Shown here: piece by piece, positions 1 through 10,874 of the stretch
Position numbering within the stretch: the first letter of the stretch is position 1
How the letters are laid out: every line of letters begins with the position of its first letter
Source: Terriglobia bacterium
Lineage (GTDB): Bacteria; Acidobacteriota; Terriglobia; 20CM-2-55-15
NCBI GenBank assembly: GCA_963664115.2
Contig: CAXWPJ010000012.1
Span: 32,001-96,000 of the forward strand
Direction of reading: 5' to 3'
Length of the DNA stretch: 64,000 nucleotides
The notes under the pieces: generated by a model
Seen by the model: only the letters and a program-made list of their open reading frames with translations
The model's database searches: none
Told to the model about the DNA's origin: nothing
Translations under genes and position numbers: made by a program

Positions 1-1569
1 GGCATCGCCGTCGATTCGGACAACAGAGAACTCTTCCTTGCCAGCCAGCACAACGCCGCGCTTGCGGTTTTCCGCCTCGATGCCGAGGAGAACGAACTGC
101 CGATCCGCCTGCTCCAGGGCGACCGAACGCGACTGGCCAACCCTCATGGGATTGCTTTCGACAGCCAGAATGGCCTGGTCTACGTCAGCAACCATGGACA
201 GGTATCGAGTCGGCCGGTGCGGGAGGCGGTGGAAGACCGGGACGACGTGCAGCCCAACGTCCCCCTGCCAAGAAGTATGGCGTTGCCGGGATCAGGCCGG
301 TTCCTGCCGCCGTCGATCAACGTGTATCGCCGTACCGCCAGCGGCAACACACCGCCGCTGCGCGTGATCGAAGGACCCAGGACGCAGTTGAATTGGCCTG
401 CGGGAGTTGCGATCGACGAGCGCCGAGGCGAGCTCTATGTCGCCAACGACACCGGTAATTCGGTGCTGGTGTTCCGCGCGGATGCATCGGGCGACGTGGC
501 GCCTATCCGCGTGATCGAGGGACCCAACACTAAATTGGATGCCCCCGGGGGCGTGTTCCTGGATACCCGGAACAACGAACTTTGGGTCTCCAACTACGGG
601 AATCACTCGCTGACCGTTTTCGCTCTCACAGCGGACGGCGACACCGCACCGCTCCGGCTGATCAGAAGCGGACCGGCCGACAGCCCGGCGCTGATGATCG
701 GCAATCCGGGCGCTGTGGCCTATGACACAAAACGGGAAGAGATTCTGGTACCCAACTGAGTGGCCCATCCGCAGATTGCGGTATTCGCCAGGCTGGCGGA
801 GGGCACAGATGGAATGACTCGAAGGATTGAGGGACAGCAGACTTTGCTGACCCGGACCATGCACGCGATCCACTACAACGAAGTTCGTGACGAGATCGTG
901 GCGCCAAATCAGTTTGCGCAGGCCATCCTGACCTTCCGCGCCTCGGCCGTTGGGGAGGAACCGCCGATCCGTGTCATACAGGGCGATCGCACCCAGCTGG
1001 AAGGGTCGTCGGGCGTCGTAATCGACACCAAACACAACGAGATTATTACGGAGCGCAAAGTCTTCCCGATTGACGCGGACGGCAACGTCCCGCCGAGCCG
1101 AACGCTCGAGTACTCGGTCAGTGCCGTCGACATGGACAACGATCTTTACATCGGCACGCGCGGACGTGACGGCGGAACCCAGCTCATGATCTTTGACCGC
1201 AACTCTGACAGTGCCGAACCGCTGCGGGTCATCAGCGGACCGAGAACGATGTTGGTCAATCCGAGGAGGATTCGAGTCCACAATGGCTGGATCCTGGTCG
1301 CGCACGACGGGATCCAGACTGACAATCCAAACAACCTGTCTTTTGTCGGGATCTGGAGCGTCAACGACGAAGGCAACGTCCCGCCCCGCTGGACTTATGG
1401 TGGACCCAACGAGATGCTCGATAAGCCCCGCGGTGTCGATGTCGACCCGAAGCATCAAACAATCATCGTGACTGACAAGACGTTGAACGCTGTGTTGACG
1501 TACTATGCGCCGGAGATTTTCGGAGAACCCGGAACCGGGAGCCGGCGGGTTGAAGAGCCGGCGGATTGA
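1..1569 (+). CDS. NHL-type beta-propeller repeat protein, 5'-partial; ORFs <1..759 and 760..1569 joined by an in-frame TGA (757-759), probable selenocysteine
   Basis: Frame is open from base 1 (GIAVDSDNRELFLASQ...). The blade motif G-x-A-x-D-x4-E-[IL]-x-V-x-N...VF...G...P.R.I.G repeats on both sides of the TGA. SECIS-like hairpin at 760-806. Confidence 0.75.
760..806 (+). promoter_or_regulatory. Candidate bacterial SECIS element
   Basis: GUG(G)CCC/GGGCAC, UCCGC/GCGGA and GCG/CGC stems close a GUAUU apical loop about 21 nt after the UGA; folded by eye. Confidence 0.5.
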
Positions 1570-2168: not shown

Positions 2169-3353
2169 CTACGCACTATCCTGAATTGGAACCTCCTTTG
2201 ATTCGAGAGCGGCGAGCTGTGCCGCGGTTAATCGCTCGACCAGACGCATCGGTCCCCGGCAGATCGGACACGGTGCCGGTGGGGTAGCACCCGCCTCGGA
2301 CTCCGGCTCGGTGATGGACTCCTGACCTAAGAGGTGCCGACAGAGTTCCAGCATCGTCTTGCGTTTCCGATTTGCCATCCATCCGTAGTACCGGATGCGG
2401 GGAAAGCCTTTCGGTAAGACATGCAGGAGGAATCGACGGAGGAACTCTTCGGGTTGGAGTGTCATTGTTCGTGGACGGCCATTGTGGCGATAGTCCTTCC
2501 AGCGGAATGTAACGCCGGATTGGTTGACATCGAGGATGCGATGATTCGAGATGGCCACCCGATGGGTATAGCGGGCCAGGTACTGAAGGACGTGTTGGGG
2601 TCCGCCGAATGGTTCTTTGGCGTACACCACCCAGTTCCGATCCTTCAGATCGTCGAGGAACCGCTCGAAGGTGGATTCGGTGGCCAGTTCCAGACACTCC
2701 CCATGGAAAACGAGCGTCTTGTTTCCGAAGGCTTCGGCTAAACCGTCGAGAAACTTTTCTCTGAAAACGTAGCTGAGCTTCTGGACCGGGAGGAAGAAGT
2801 CGGTCCGGGAGGAGTGGATCCACCGGTCGTGATCCGGGGACAGTCCGCCACCGGGAACCACACAGTGGATATGGGGATGGCGTTGCAGGGTTTGTCCCCA
2901 GGTATGCAGGATGCTGAGGAATCCGATCTCGCCGCCCAGATACCTGGGGTTTCGGGCCACTTCGATCAGCGCCGCCGCACTGGTTCGGAACAGAAGCGCA
3001 TAGAGCACCTTCTTGTTCTGCCAGATCAATGGGATCAACTGATGGGGCAGGCTGAAGACCAGATGGAAGTATCCGATCGGTAGCAGTTCCTGTTGCCGTT
3101 TCTCGACCCAGGTGTTCCGCGCATTGGTCTGGCACTTCGGGCAGTGGCGGTTCCGGCACGAGTGGTAGACCAGCGTTTGGTGGCCACAGTGGTCGCATCG
3201 TTTCCGGTTCCCGCCCAGTGCGGCGGTCCGGCAATGGGTAATCGCGTTGAGGACCTTGACCTGGGGCCAGGCCAGCGCTTTCAAATACCGTTGTCGGAAT
3301 CGGTCTCCGACGATGCGAATCACGTCAGCCACCTCAAAGGGTGGCCGGCTCAC
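2169..3353 (-). CDS. IS91 family (Y2/HUH) transposase with Zn-binding domain
   Basis: CRTAALGG, SCRNRHCPKCQ, LHTWG..HPHIHC, YLARYTHRVAIS motifs. Confidence 0.93.
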   Translation of the reverse strand: MSRPPFEVADVIRIVGDRFRQRYLKALAWPQVKVLNAITHCRTAALGGNRKRCDHCGHQTLVYHSCRNRHCPKCQTNARNTWVEKRQQELLPIGYFHLVFSLPHQLIPLIWQNKKVLYALLFRTSAAALIEVARNPRYLGGEIGFLSILHTWGQTLQRHPHIHCVVPGGGLSPDHDRWIHSSRTDFFLPVQKLSYVFREKFLDGLAEAFGNKTLVFHGECLELATESTFERFLDDLKDRNWVVYAKEPFGGPQHVLQYLARYTHRVAISNHRILDVNQSGVTFRWKDYRHNGRPRTMTLQPEEFLRRFLLHVLPKGFPRIRYYGWMANRKRKTMLELCRHLLGQESITEPESEAGATPPAPCPICRGPMRLVERLTAAQLAALESKEVPIQDSA

Positions 3354-4231
3354 TTCTTTGGATCCTTAACCACAGGTGAAAGCTTCAACTGATCCAGAGG
3401 ATTGCGCGCGGTTCGAAGATGGCGCCGGGACAGTTGCAGGTAGAGCGTGGTATCGCTGAGCCGACTGTGTCCCATCAAGAGCTGGATCGTGCGCAAGTCG
3501 GTCCCGGACTCTAGCAGGTGGGTCGCGAAGCTGTGCCGTAGCGTGTGCGGACCGATCCTCTGGGTCAGACCCGCACGCTGGGCGGCCCCATGAACGGCAT
3601 GCCAGACCACCTTGTCCGAGATCGGAGCATCCGTGCCCCGGTGTCCTGCACTGCTGTGAAACAGATAGACCTCGGGCTTTTTCAATAACCAGTACCCCCG
3701 TAACGCTTCAAGCAGATTGCGACTCAACGGGACATCCCGGTCCCGACGCCCTTTCCCGTCGCGGATATGCACCAGCATCCGTTCACTGTCGATGTCGGCC
3801 ACCTTCAACACGGCGGCTTCGGCCCGTCGCATCCCGGTCCCGTAGAGCACCATCAGGATGGCCCGGTGCATCGGACTCAATGCGGCTTGGATCAACCGGC
3901 GGACTTCAGACGGACCCAGGATCGTGGGTAGTTTCCGCGCACTCTTGGGCATGGGCAGATCATCCAGTTCCAGATCCGCACGTCGCAGCAGCACCTTCTT
4001 GTAAAGGAATCGTATCGCCGAGGTCCGCATCCCGACCGTACTCGCCGCCAGCTTCTTTTCGGTCAGTAAGTACAGCTGAAAACGCCGTACCTCCTCGGCT
4101 CCCATCAAGGCCGGAGACTTGCCGAAGTAATTCGCGAATTGTTCGACTGCCAGAATGTAGCCACGACTCGTGGCCGGGGAATAGTTCCGTCGCTGGAGTT
4201 CCTCCAGCATCCGTTCTCGTAGTTGGGTCAT
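3350..4231 (-). CDS. Tyrosine recombinase/integrase
   Basis: YGTGMRRAE, GKGRRDR, HTLRHSFATHLLE, LMGH...TTLY catalytic motifs. Confidence 0.93.
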   Translation of the reverse strand: MTQLRERMLEELQRRNYSPATSRGYILAVEQFANYFGKSPALMGAEEVRRFQLYLLTEKKLAASTVGMRTSAIRFLYKKVLLRRADLELDDLPMPKSARKLPTILGPSEVRRLIQAALSPMHRAILMVLYGTGMRRAEAAVLKVADIDSERMLVHIRDGKGRRDRDVPLSRNLLEALRGYWLLKKPEVYLFHSSAGHRGTDAPISDKVVWHAVHGAAQRAGLTQRIGPHTLRHSFATHLLESGTDLRTIQLLMGHSRLSDTTLYLQLSRRHLRTARNPLDQLKLSPVVKDPKK

Positions 4232-5353: not shown

Positions 5354-5740
5354 CTAAGGTATCGGCGCGCCGTCCCCTCGCGTGACCCCGCTCCCCGGGC
5401 CGCGAAGATTAACAGCGTATCCGTTGTTGGCCGGGTGGCCTTTCACGACAAGCTCTTCGCCAGGGGTGAAGGTCTCGGGCGAGAAGCCCAGCCGGCGCAT
5501 AGAGGCCACCCCGGACGCGCCGAAGGTGACCGTCCATATCGATCTCTGGCCGTCCTCCTCTCCGGCGATCTCCACGCGAAGGATAGGGTGCGGGTTCACG
5601 AAGTACCATTCGGTGACGGCGCCCCGCATCTCGACCACGCGCGTCTCGTCGAAGAGGTTGCGTTCGCTGTGGTGAGCCGCCCCGGGAAGGGTCAGCACAA
5701 ACATCAACGCTGCTGCTGCGACTGCCGCATCGACTTTCAT
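5354..5740 (-). CDS. DUF6152-like secreted protein
   Basis: Signal peptide ending GAA|HHS, G.V.EW...NPH, V.GHPA motifs. Confidence 0.8.
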   Translation of the reverse strand: MKVDAAVAAAALMFVLTLPGAAHHSERNLFDETRVVEMRGAVTEWYFVNPHPILRVEIAGEEDGQRSIWTVTFGASGVASMRRLGFSPETFTPGEELVVKGHPANNGYAVNLRGPGSGVTRGDGAPIP

Positions 5741-5779: not shown

Positions 5780-6526
5780 CTATCTTTCGCGAACAACCGG
5801 TGGATCCTCCGGGTACTTCGAGGGGAAGACCGAGAGGATCTCCTGCGCGGCCTCGGAATTGCAATTCCAGGGCAGGGTCAGGGGATTATCGCTCCGCTCG
5901 GACTCGACAACGAACTCGATAGGCTCCACGAGGAAGACAGGATCTTCAGTTCTCACCTCGCGCCGCAGCCTGTCCCCATCTAGTGAGTAACGCTCCGTAA
6001 CGCGTTTCTGCGTCGACGACGGTACGTTGAAATCGCTATCGAGCCCTGCCGGATCGAACGCAAACCGCGTCGTCTCGACGATGAGCTGATTTCTCTCATA
6101 CCGCCCGGTCGAATATCCGGACGTAAAGAACTCGTTAACGCGCGGCTCCGGATGAGCGTGGCCTTCCAGCCAGACCGTACGCACGACGTCGTCCTTCTCA
6201 TAGGTCAGAATCACGCGGTCCGCCAGTTGACGGATCTCGAAAAGGTACGGGTCGGTAAACAGGTGCGGGATGGGCGTGGGCCAACAATCATATTTCGGAG
6301 CTGCAACCTCGTCGAACGCGGCCCGGAAAGCCTTCGCTCGGGCCGTCAGCGCGGGGTGATCGGGCCCAACGGAAGTGCATTGGTTCGGCCCGACACACAG
6401 CCCACGGTTCCAGACCCCGTCCAGCCCGGAAATTGCAGAGGAGCGCTCCTGTGACAGTCCCGGCCCGGGAGCCCCCAGAAGTGTCAGCAGAAACAGACAG
6501 AGCGCAATAGCAAGTCGCTTGGGCAT
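5780..6526 (-). CDS. Secreted hypothetical protein (DUF6152 partner family, beta-rich)
   Basis: Signal peptide; LDGVW, C.P...P, R.VWL.G, G.S.G.....L.V.T motifs shared with 29366 and 50834; RBS GAGGTG. Confidence 0.75.
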   Translation of the reverse strand: MPKRLAIALCLFLLTLLGAPGPGLSQERSSAISGLDGVWNRGLCVGPNQCTSVGPDHPALTARAKAFRAAFDEVAAPKYDCWPTPIPHLFTDPYLFEIRQLADRVILTYEKDDVVRTVWLEGHAHPEPRVNEFFTSGYSTGRYERNQLIVETTRFAFDPAGLDSDFNVPSSTQKRVTERYSLDGDRLRREVRTEDPVFLVEPIEFVVESERSDNPLTLPWNCNSEAAQEILSVFPSKYPEDPPVVRER

Positions 6527-6735
6527 CGGGCACCTCTTGGATCCAATTTCCTCAGGCGAGGATGCCATAACCCTACCCGAACTTTCAAAGAATATAAAAC
6601 TGCAGTACCTACTTCGCCTTGATCTCGGACGCGATCTTGACGCCTTTTTCCGGGATTCTCTGCCAGGGCGGCTTGGGTCCCCAGAAAATCACCGTCATCA
6701 GGTAGAGCAGCCATCGGGCCAGCCAGGACCGGGAG

Positions 6736-7804: not shown

Positions 7805-10036
7805 CTAGAACCTGTGCGTGTAAACCAATTTCGTGGCGAGGCTGCGGTCGAGTGTTGTCAACCGGTCACCGGAATCCAACGAATTGTTCAGCCACACGAG
7901 GTATATGTCATTACCCGGCGTCAAAATCCATCGGAAGCGGAACTGCCAACCGAGAATGCGACTCACCGAATCGTACTGAATGTTGTTCGAGATCGACATG
8001 AAAGGGCTGAACTGTGCATTGATCACAGCACGGAGAGTCTTTGTGGAGAAACTTCCCTCGGTAAGCTCAACCCGGTTGAACGAGGCACTCAAAGCTGCAA
8101 ACAGTCCGGGCCGTGGTCTCAGGTTCAAATCGGCGGACAACTCGCGACGGTGCCCGGAATAAAAGGTACCGAACGTGGCGTTGGCTCCGCCTGAAATTTT
8201 TCTTCGAGCAGCCGTACTGACGCTGAACCTATAGCGCGAGTAATTGTGTTCAGATCCGGCGGGAAGGATAATTCCACCGCCAATTCGGAAATCTCGCTGC
8301 AACTGTTCATATGTTCGGGAGACGATAACACTTACCCTTTCACCCGAATGAAAGCTGACATCCGCTAATGAGAAATAGTAGCTGCGTTCGACCCATTTGC
8401 CTTCGGTATCGTCAGTAAAGAAGTCCGCACGCAGCAGGCCCATGGTAACCTGGCGAACCCAAGGGTTGTTGCTGGGACGGGGACGGAACTGAATGCGGGG
8501 GGTCAGTTTCCGGTAGTCGTTTCCGTCCAAAAAACCGACCGCCGGGTCGGCATTCCGCTGGATCACGCGATAAAAGGTATTGAAGATCCAACGATCGTTG
8601 GGATAATCCACGCGTACCCCGTAAGCCGCGTTGTCGCCATCGTTCACCCCATTCGGTGTCTTCATGTAGTAGCCGACGAATCGCAGGTTCTGAGATCCCT
8701 GGAACCGCGACGTGGCGATCTGAATGTCTGCGCCTATGGTGTGGCGATCCGGAAGATTCGACTCTCGCGTCGCGCGCCGCGTGTATATCAGGCCCGCGTA
8801 CGATTCGCTTAAGAAACGACGTTTCGATCGGAAAACAGTAAAGTCCTCACCCAACACCTCGCCTGCTCTGGCCGTACGGACCTGCAGGAAACCCAAATCA
8901 AAATTGTCGACGCTCCCGGTCAGCTTCCCACCGTAGTCGATTTTCTGGGGTTGTCCGCCTTCGGTGAGGCCGATGCGTCGTGAGAAGAACGCACTCAAGT
9001 TGCGCGACGGATCGCGCGAAAAATCGAAGTTGCCCGCACCTTCGAGAAAGAAATCGCGCTTCTCCGGAAAGAAGAGTCGAAAGCGAGTGAGGTTCACCTG
9101 GCGGTCGTCGACTTCGGTTTGCGCGAAATCCGTGTTGAGGGTGAAGTTCGCCTTGAGCTGCGGCGTCAGGTTGTAGAAGATGTCGAGACCGGCATCTCCC
9201 TGGGTGGTGGACCCAATATCGCGTCCCGGTGAATCGGTGTAGGTTCCGATCAGATAGGGTTTGATATCCAGACCGAGCCCCTGGGTCACGCCATTGATTC
9301 CTTCAATCCGGCCCGCTGCAGGCAGGCTTAAGAGACCCTGGTTGAGACCCCATCCACTCCATAAGCTCTCTTCGTTCTTGCGTCGCACCGTGCGTTGAAA
9401 GTTGGCGCCCCAGGCTTGGGCCTGAGGGTCGAAGTTCAACGTGCGGAAAGGAATCTCGATTTCAGCGGTCCAGCCTTGATCGTGACGCGTGACTTGAGCC
9501 ATCCAGATCCCATCCCATGCCCGATTCTCTGTCATGCCGAAACCGCCGCCGCCCTGGGCCGGTACCAGTTGCGCATCGCCCATGGCGCCTGCCGGATTGA
9601 TCTCGAAGAAATAGCCGCTGGTTTGATCGTAAAACGGGTCGAGCATCCACATGAAACGGTCGTCCGCGGACAGGGCTCCATCACGGACCATTTGATTGCC
9701 GAGCAGGCCGTTCGGATCGGAATCGTAGAGTTCGACTCCGATATACAGAATGTCGCTATTGAAGACGACCCGAATCTCCGTCCGCTCGGTGGCCGGCGTG
9801 CCGGTCTCAGGTTCGGATTGCCTGAAGTCGGTGGTGGGTTCCCCGCGTTGCCATGCGTCTTCGTCCAGGCTTCCGTCGATCGTGATCTCCTCGCCGACCT
9901 CCAGGCGAAGGGCGCGGAGCACCGGCGTATCCCCGATCACCGTCACTTGGGACGCGGCGCTGGCAGCTCCGGGAAACACGGACCCGGGGATCAAAAGAAA
10001 GGCGAGCCAGTGCTTCATCGTGGAGCAAGATAACAT
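7805..10036 (-). CDS. CBM9-like/DUF5916 secreted (probably outer-membrane) protein
   Basis: IDGSLDEDAW, W.AEIEIPF.TL.F, NTDFAQTEVDDRQVNLTRF.LFFPEKRDFFLEG; C-terminal Phe. Confidence 0.85.
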   Translation of the reverse strand: MLSCSTMKHWLAFLLIPGSVFPGAASAASQVTVIGDTPVLRALRLEVGEEITIDGSLDEDAWQRGEPTTDFRQSEPETGTPATERTEIRVVFNSDILYIGVELYDSDPNGLLGNQMVRDGALSADDRFMWMLDPFYDQTSGYFFEINPAGAMGDAQLVPAQGGGGFGMTENRAWDGIWMAQVTRHDQGWTAEIEIPFRTLNFDPQAQAWGANFQRTVRRKNEESLWSGWGLNQGLLSLPAAGRIEGINGVTQGLGLDIKPYLIGTYTDSPGRDIGSTTQGDAGLDIFYNLTPQLKANFTLNTDFAQTEVDDRQVNLTRFRLFFPEKRDFFLEGAGNFDFSRDPSRNLSAFFSRRIGLTEGGQPQKIDYGGKLTGSVDNFDLGFLQVRTARAGEVLGEDFTVFRSKRRFLSESYAGLIYTRRATRESNLPDRHTIGADIQIATSRFQGSQNLRFVGYYMKTPNGVNDGDNAAYGVRVDYPNDRWIFNTFYRVIQRNADPAVGFLDGNDYRKLTPRIQFRPRPSNNPWVRQVTMGLLRADFFTDDTEGKWVERSYYFSLADVSFHSGERVSVIVSRTYEQLQRDFRIGGGIILPAGSEHNYSRYRFSVSTAARRKISGGANATFGTFYSGHRRELSADLNLRPRPGLFAALSASFNRVELTEGSFSTKTLRAVINAQFSPFMSISNNIQYDSVSRILGWQFRFRWILTPGNDIYLVWLNNSLDSGDRLTTLDRSLATKLVYTHRF

Positions 10037-10106
10037 GTCTCTCCACGACCCGAAATTGAACGAGTTATGCTTGCGGGCATGGCGGCGTTGGCATGCGAGC
10101 CTCAAT

Positions 10107-10874
10107 CTAAACAAAAGCCGGAGAGATATCGGCGTCGTCTTTCTGGAGTTTCGAATCAAAAAGCGAATATGGATTGACGTTGGCCAGAGCTGCTGTAACC
10201 GATTCAGGCACATCGACGTAGTCTTCGCTCATCTGTTTCAAGAAGGCACGAATGTCCTTGCGGGGCCCCTCCTTTTCAGCGCAGACACACCCGATTTCCA
10301 CCAGATCGTCCTGCTCCACATATCTGCACGTGAGTTCCTCGGAAACGAACACCAGGGGCCGGATCACGCGCATGGAACCTTTCCGCGATTCGGCTACCGG
10401 TGGCAGGGCGGCGATCCGGCCGTTGAATAAAATATTCCTGATCAAAGCCTCGGCGCAATCGTCGGCCGTATGACCCAAGGCCAACGCGGTGCAGCCCAGT
10501 TCTGATGCGACCTGATACAGCGCACTTCTCCTGTTCCGGCTGCACACATCGCAGCCATGTGCAACACCGTTGCCGACCAGAGCGAGAGTTCTCGGTTCGT
10601 CCCGGAGAATCCAGGCTATCCCCAGTCGTTCAAATCGCTCTTTGAGTCCTCCGACAGGTTCGGTGAATTTCCCCTGCTCCAGCGTTACCGCCACAATCTC
10701 AAAGGAAAACGGCGCAGGCCCACGGTAGGCCGCAAGTGCGTGCACGAGACAGAGGCTGTCTTTACCCCCGGAGACACCCACCGCAACTCTGTCGCCACTG
10801 CGAAGCATAGAGAACGTGCCCATGGCACGGCCGATCCGATCAAGGACCTTTCTTTGGATCTCTGTATCGTTCAT
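10107..10874 (-). CDS. ttcA: tRNA 2-thiocytidine(32) synthetase (PP-loop)
   Basis: SGGKDS, CxxC, ALGHTADD, VIRPL. Confidence 0.8.
   Translation of the reverse strand: MNDTEIQRKVLDRIGRAMGTFSMLRSGDRVAVGVSGGKDSLCLVHALAAYRGPAPFSFEIVAVTLEQGKFTEPVGGLKERFERLGIAWILRDEPRTLALVGNGVAHGCDVCSRNRRSALYQVASELGCTALALGHTADDCAEALIRNILFNGRIAALPPVAESRKGSMRVIRPLVFVSEELTCRYVEQDDLVEIGCVCAEKEGPRKDIRAFLKQMSEDYVDVPESVTAALANVNPYSLFDSKLQKDDADISPAFV

Follow-up and report, generated by a model that had tools for sequence, protein, structure and literature searches.

Near the left edge of the window, the whole 64,000-nt stretch of DNA analysed here (G000:C12:32001-96000), an NHL propeller reading frame runs into a TGA and continues in frame directly behind it. 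Does this TGA separate two genes, or is it a selenocysteine (Sec) codon within a single gene, and what kind of protein would then carry the residue?

An in-frame TGA within a propeller gene

Frame 1 is open from upstream of window base 1 to the TGA at 757-759 (window coordinates are used unless stated otherwise), where GTG-GCC-CAT follows in frame with zero gap and the frame stays open to the TGA at 1567-1569. A sequence-only reading of this DNA had described ...EEILVPN-TGA as abutting GTG-GCC-CAT (VAHPQIAVF) in exactly this way, and reading the frame confirmed it. The ATG start of the frame lies at G000:C12:31314, 687 nt upstream of the window, and the read-through product is 751 aa long with position 482 (U482) at the TGA (Table 1). 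When called separately, the part behind the TGA (760..1569) is a 269-aa ORF, for which no Pfam or NCBIfam match was found. We conclude that the UGA is very likely read as selenocysteine in a SelB-dependent manner and, with high confidence, that this recoding yields from one gene a protein predicted to be exported and to form two six-bladed NHL propellers.

Table 1 Features of the propeller gene, its RNA element, its surroundings and further Sec candidates.
Feature	Position	Strand	Remarks
5' part of fused gene	G000:C12:31314-32000, upstream of window		First 229 codons; hydrophobic export/anchor segment (aa about 36-52), C181
Codons 230-481 of fused gene	1..756	+	Remainder of predicted propeller 1 (up to about 1-650), followed by blade 7 strands a-b
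Inferred selenocysteine codon for U482 (in-frame TGA)	757..759	+	Motif N-U-V-x-H-P, on blade 7 in the loop between strands b and c
3' part of fused gene, codons 483-751 with closing TGA	760..1569	+	Rest of predicted propeller 2; H485, invariant R514, H517, D721, N725
Long hairpin of the sequence-only reading	760..806	+	Lowest-energy fold of window copy, in competition with both short hairpins; no family-wide conservation
Hairpin 1, CCGCA-NNU-UGCGG	769..781 (+10 to +22)	+	Small, conserved; 96.1% of cells paired
Hairpin 2, UUCGCC-AGGYU-GGCGRA	784..800 (+25 to +41), loop 790-794	+	Best candidate SelB-binding SECIS; 98.9% of cells paired
Divergent paralog with same TGA	L001:4995-10883, upstream of window		TonB-type outer-membrane barrel gene between both copies
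IS91-type Y2 transposase and tyrosine integrase gene	2169-4231	-	Just downstream of gene
DUF6152	5354-5740	-	
262-aa ORF	5780-6568	-	No Pfam match
DUF5916 protein	7805-10213	-	
Further Sec candidates (11)	L149-L159		AhpC/Prx x3, deiodinase x3, Rdx, OsmC, ArsC, rhodanese, MerB (MerB below cut-off)
Candidate selenoprotein, deiodinase-like, with several EF-hands fused to it	L159, G000:C12:267902-268900	-	
DUF3179 gene with in-frame TGA (UxxC)	L051:9707-11359, G000:C2, TGA at 360043		Just after C2 paralog, as is a redoxin gene

Sequencing error does not account for the TGA: orthologs at 90-94% identity repeat it, and contigs from other sequencing runs span it with zero mismatching letters. Nor is it unique to this strain, which the sequence-only reading had named as a point to be checked. 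Using tblastn, 13 paralogs could be identified in the source genome, 39-60% identical and each interrupted by a stop at one shared column, and this stop is TGA in all 13 of them.

The TGA column alternates with cysteine

Across 134 distinct homologous DNA sites (all fetched loci with identity of at least 40%, with one site at a contig end dropped and weaker matches falling on other blades) the column holds TGA 120 times, TGC 13 times and TGT once, with no TAA or TAG and no gap. The protein search returned 2041 matches among 8000 scored. Within the best 120, 76 carry Cys at the column, one carries Trp and 43 end exactly at ...PN, which bears out the earlier claim that gene callers split the protein in two. 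Cys is thus found in 76 of the 77 full-length database homologs and Trp in one (P0043), a tally in line with the Sec codon proposed by the sequence-only reading. The Sec-form halves are labelled 'hypothetical', 'lactonase' or 'YncE' in databases, Atlas clusters closest to the Cys form are half-length (273-504 aa), and a Cys-form query run against a class-wide sample gave 76 genome matches, of which 75 contain one TGA.

On a FastTree phylogeny with 192 tips (105 Sec; Sec and SECIS columns removed; Trp form counted as Cys), the Cys forms make up 19 separate clades, and parsimony requires 18 Sec/Cys changes, whereas each of 200 shuffles needed 54 or more. Sec and Cys interchange repeatedly in the propeller family, although the tree is midpoint-rooted and its root does not fix the direction of the changes. 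With natural Cys and Sec forms and many independent exchanges, the Sec-versus-Cys question becomes testable on one scaffold.

Some copies deserve separate mention. Two paralogs, L051:7005-9326 and L049:5021-7342, lie on different contigs and are near-identical in the propeller region, which suggests a recent duplication. Directly after a full copy lies an orphan C-terminal fragment of 98 aa (L047:4062-4358, minus strand) that belongs to the family. The second stops in the two C5 paralogs are true gene ends.

A conserved two-hairpin element lies 3' of the UGA

In the sequence-only reading, the SECIS element was placed in a long hairpin immediately behind the UGA. This hairpin is a real fold of the window copy, with its loop GUAUU 21 nt after the UGA (-22.1 kcal/mol, z -2.1, matched by 4 of 200 shuffles), but it is not conserved: across 46 distinct sequences 76.5% of its cells are paired, a value reached by 319 of 500 shuffles, and its loop belongs to the dominant fold at only 5 of 120 TGA sites. 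It was therefore rejected as the family SECIS. A model with two smaller hairpins pairs 97.6% of cells, with 0 of 500 shuffles as high, where it should be noted that the structure was derived from the same rows it was scored on and that these rows are kin. Hairpin 2 is the dominant fold at 92 of the 120 TGA sites, and the conserved G-containing loop sits within it, 30 nt from the UGA rather than at the position first proposed. Two-sided changes are few in the two-hairpin model (three pairs, 4 cells), two of these pairs being in hairpin 2.

Constraint on the element follows the TGA. Hairpin 2 has all 6 of its pairs intact at 112 of the 120 TGA sites, compared with 5 of the 14 Cys sites, and the fold energy 3' of the site is -11.9 kcal/mol in TGA genes versus -7.2 in Cys genes. 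TGA genes use CCG for Pro+4 (120/120), GCG for Ala+7 (119/120), GCC for Ala+10 (115/115) and AGG for Arg+11 (114/118, compared with a genome-wide AGG share of 7.5%), and GG is present at +32/+33 in 116 of 120 sites. Cys genes are relaxed, with AGG in 3 of 13 and GCC in 5 of 11. Within the candidate SECIS, synonymous codon choice is frozen where the gene carries TGA and relaxed where it carries Cys. Cys-coding copies at L043:2573 (minus strand), L095:6261 and L106:2724 retain the AGG loop codon and are possibly recent Sec-to-Cys changes. A depth spike at 701-840, present in all four runs mapped, both DNA-like and RNA, indicates many homologs that are at least 90% alike in that stretch only.

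A ribosome positioned at the UGA would hold the first 9-15 nt open by its footprint. Folded alone, the window copy favors the long hairpin (pair probability about 0.8, versus 0.15-0.18 for hairpin 2), whereas with +1 to +9..15 held open, the pair probability of hairpin 2 is 0.73-0.96. We propose that the ribosome at the UGA would melt the first 9-15 nt, after which SelB-tRNA(Sec) could bind hairpin 2 through its A-GGY-U loop at a distance of 30 nt. In the bSECIS model as outlined in PMC13188914, a 3-9 nt loop with G in one of its first two positions tops a 4-16 bp stem 16-37 nt from the UGA; measured against this outline, hairpin 2 fits, with a 5-nt loop (AGGYU), 6 bp and 30 nt. With respect to the -7.5 kcal/mol energy criterion, the window copy is borderline (-7.6 with one extra pair), paralogs range from -7.2 to -13.5 kcal/mol and the 6-bp core alone reaches -7.5 or lower at 34 of 120 sites. 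At 30 nt, loop spacing in the window gene exceeds that of the 13 Sec candidates outside the family in this genome (17-26 nt), and this distal two-hairpin element offers a clean test of the reach of the bacterial SECIS model.

Selenocysteine machinery and selenoproteome of the source genome

The source genome encodes selA, selB and selD above curated cut-offs as well as tRNA-Sec, that is, every component for which the sequence-only reading had suggested looking, and selD itself carries an in-frame TGA. The selA and selB matches are free of internal stops, and tRNA-Sec is the sole tRNA called with a UCA anticodon, tRNA-Trp having CCA. Among tested family-bearing genomes, selA was matched in 14 of 16, one match being merely a fragment, and the two genomes with no selA match both carry selB and tRNA-Sec. 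Co-occurrence of selA and the family does not discriminate, because selA is found in 53 of 61 genomes overall, including most family-free ones. One 95% complete genome (G056) has 18 family matches, selB and tRNA-Sec, with no selA match to TIGR00474.

A genome scan yielded 858 TGA candidates, 137 of them with a SECIS-like hairpin, and recovered all 13 family copies. Eleven scan rows picked by eye all match Pfam families of catalogued selenoproteins (Table 1). Together with SelD and the DUF3179 protein, these make at least 13 other Sec candidates, so that roughly every second selenoprotein gene found belongs to the propeller family. The C2 paralog, the DUF3179 Sec gene and the redoxin gene form a small selenoprotein cluster. 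Internal stops were found in 0 of 5 Fdh-alpha matches in this genome.

A predicted double propeller with a probable Sec on a blade loop

The AlphaFold model of the fused protein, based on 89 sequences, is all-beta and contains 12 blade repeats (pLDDT 90.2, pTM 0.88). Its first six blades (model residues 65-384) match NHL propellers with Z 28.7 and rmsd 2.3 over 252 residues, and Pfam NHL (PF01436) scores 59 bits against a cut-off of 20. In the second half the model shows another six blade repeats of high pLDDT, the fold matches spanning the first half, and an N-terminal strand would complete blade 12 in the model. In this model U482 follows strand b of blade 7 and sits in the b-c loop. The TGA thus separates strand b from strand c within one blade, in agreement with the earlier claim that the stop interrupts a single repeat, and the prediction for the fused protein likewise upholds the earlier picture of one multi-propeller protein on a non-thioredoxin scaffold. 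Neither a UxxC/CxxU motif nor a thioredoxin fold was found in the fused protein, whose site motif is NUVAH. A Foldseek search for tandem-propeller matches gave only generic ones, with TM of at most 0.32 among the matches listed, which does not prove a new propeller arrangement; a sequence search of solved structures gave only designed Pizza propellers (E about 1e-3). One N-terminal hydrophobic segment is present in 13 of 13 copies by hydropathy scan, and the protein is predicted to be exported on the basis of this segment.

In an alignment of 194 rows, Sec and Cys forms combined, U/C482, R514, H517 and D198 are invariant, and D142-E143-N144, Q245, H278, N293, N378, H431, N464, H485, D721 and N725 are conserved in at least 90% (H278 in 188 of 194, compared with 194 of 194 for H517). 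Propeller topology puts the conserved residues of this protein on ligand faces, the b-c loop side being the usual ligand face of a propeller. C181, at the blade position equivalent to H517, is present in 87 of 106 Sec rows and 22 of 88 Cys rows. No row with an N-terminal arm lacks both C84 and C181 (0 of 179, one row duplicating the query), the four rows with neither residue all being N-truncated. Seven C84-less clades all retain C181, and eight C181-less clades retain C84 wherever the arm is present. All 19 of the 19 C84-less rows come from the source genome and its relatives, N-arms align poorly and sampling is skewed; with these limits, the pattern suggests that C84 and C181 are exchangeable resolving cysteines.

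The invariant U/C482, R514, H517 and D198 together with an always-kept partner Cys, either C84 or C181, suggest a redox site. We hypothesize that U482 lies on the b-c loop of blade 7, with H485, R514, H517 (blade 8) and D721/N725 (blade 12) on adjoining blades, and that its selenolate, stabilised by His and Arg, would attack a small periplasmic substrate. A distant Cys, C181 of propeller 1 or C84 of the N-terminal arm, would then resolve it as a selenenyl-sulfide, and the 13 paralogs may serve different substrates. To thiol-type redox chemistry of the selenolate with a distant Cys we assign even chances.

Given recoding, Sec/Cys482 could instead be a metal ligand or hydrolytic nucleophile acting with H485, H517, H278 and D198, making the protein a lyase or hydrolase, as six-bladed propeller enzymes elsewhere are, rather than a thiol oxidoreductase. 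Both propellers have many conserved His, Asp and Asn residues on what are inferred to be their ligand faces, no CxxU/UxxC motif is present, Pfam Lactonase (36 bits) and SGL (26.6 bits) score above cut-off, and gluconolactonases and SMP30 are among the fold neighbors. The His positions may resemble metal sites of the PAL or SMP-30 type. However, NCBIfam scores are far from their cut-offs (lactonase 25.2 vs 370 bits, YncE 18.9 vs 400 bits), the fold neighbors are generic propellers at no more than 24% identity, and a pure metal site leaves the always-kept second Cys unexplained. We consider such a site unlikely, albeit worth keeping in mind.

Distribution and genome neighborhood

Family matches were found in 15 of 60 relatives, with 1-26 matches each and at least 13 in 12 of them, these being matches and not copy numbers. 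In a class-wide sample the family is present in 27 of 300 other genomes, mostly from two families, and in a phylum-wide sample in 1 of 400. The closest named relatives are Terriglobia/Acidobacteria MAGs, and a search of viral contigs with an exact DNA motif gave no match. Metatranscriptome contigs contain pieces of both gene halves, which is not proof of transcription, as DNA carry-over is possible.

No conserved operon was found in the neighborhood of family loci. TonB-type barrel genes are present in 22 and DUF6152 genes in 13 of the 128 loci examined, raw counts that give no more than a functional hint. DUF6152 and DUF5916 genes recur next to paralogs.

These neighbors bear on a non-catalytic role, in which the recoded protein would be exported and act in binding, together with TonB-type receptors, its selenol capturing a soft metal or electrophile. 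A TonB-type barrel gene lies just upstream of the window gene too, the closest folds are NHL binding domains and paralogs are numerous. TonB-type receptor genes are, however, common near many genes here, and the invariant Sec/Cys-His-Arg set points rather to catalysis, being more typical of it than of binding. Provided the UGA is recoded, we regard a pure binding role as improbable.

Alternative readings of the TGA

The TGA could also be a true stop separating two genes coupled in translation (TGA-GTG), with halves that assemble in trans and Cys forms that are fusions. GTG directly follows the TGA at 103 of 120 sites, the N-half would contain a complete first propeller and both halves are listed as proteins in databases. 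Against this, the other 17 sites, including orthologs at 94% identity, have no GTG at +1, and TAA, TAG or a gap occurs in none of the 134 sites. The sequence-only reading had seen no Shine-Dalgarno sequence before the GTG, and anti-SD pairing there is indeed weak, at -2.8 kcal/mol in the window copy and reaching -4 at 3 of 120 TGA sites (9-nt probe, uncalibrated on true starts). Moreover, the C-half has no export signal and begins mid-blade, and the fused forms carry Cys precisely at the stop position, in 19 separate clades. A true stop is very improbable. Read-through of the UGA as Cys or Trp by a variant code or special tRNA, for which the single Trp homolog and the role of Cys as natural substitute speak, is just as remote in view of the anticodons called, the selA and selB matches free of internal stops, the hairpin constraint tied to TGA and the genome's 13 other TGA genes that belong to catalogued Sec families.

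Returning to selenocysteine, the UGA lies just past propeller 1, so that selenium supply could switch between one-propeller and two-propeller output. Taken as a whole, we lean slightly towards a large and overlooked family of exported double-NHL Sec enzymes on a beta-propeller scaffold, with a dozen or more Sec copies per genome in some Terriglobia lineages and about half of the selenoproteome in the source genome, a distal two-hairpin SECIS, a long-range interdomain Sec-Cys pair and a selenium supply that possibly switches between the two products. If true, this would bring a new fold, and probably a new chemistry, to the selenoproteins, a group dominated by thioredoxin-like members, and change the picture of selenium use in Acidobacteriota, as the 13 copies equal in number the 13 other Sec candidates found.

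Comparison with known systems

The sequence-only reading had mentioned NHL-repeat selenoproteins as previously predicted, which our literature search did not bear out: no prior description was found, although subscription papers, other supplements and BSepDB could contain one. Table 1 of the 2026 catalogue of 119 prokaryotic selenoprotein families (PMC13188914) has no entry named NHL or propeller, and the Pfam matches of the fused protein are absent from the ids in that table, its cd and PTHR entries being compared by name only. The main texts of PMC1976440, PMC5029168, PMC9312934, PMC2398784, PMC13326102, PMC12013277, PMC13745706, PMC1794560 and PMC1088965 mention neither NHL nor propeller, nor do the searched part of one supplementary file of PMC13326102 and the supplements of PMC12013277, where the matches listed are letters within sequences. 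No NCBIfam model scored above cut-off for the fused protein.

Like the families in Table 1 of PMC13188914, most of which are presumed redox proteins, the propeller has a single Sec and Cys homologs, but it differs from those tabulated in its motif NUVxHP and in lacking a thioredoxin fold. With lactonase, YncE and SMP-30 propellers, as labelled in databases, it shares weak Pfam matches and the propeller fold, whereas its NCBIfam equivalog scores are below a tenth of the cut-off and it has 12 blades and an invariant Sec/Cys. Propeller 1 aligns with six-bladed NHL propellers (TRIM2 7qrv, TRIM71 9jur, SOQ1 7djl, NHLRC2 6gc1, PknD 1rwi); unlike in these solved structures, to which identity is at most 24%, two propellers are predicted in one chain. 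In NHLRC2 the redox-type domain is, according to the entry title, a separate thioredoxin-like fold, while here Sec would sit on the propeller itself.

In its decoding, the gene resembles bacterial SelB/bSECIS genes of the E. coli fdhF type, with an in-frame UGA, Cys homologs and selA/B/C/D in the genome, and its intragenic hairpin follows the bSECIS outline of PMC13188914 (N-G[G/U]-N-N loop within 16-37 nt). It departs from such genes in a loop at the far end of this range, a second conserved hairpin before it, a double NHL propeller scaffold and 13 paralogs in one genome. The catalogue checked does not list this family. Its mode of recoding is a known one, and what is new is the scaffold, together with the number of copies and the two-hairpin element.
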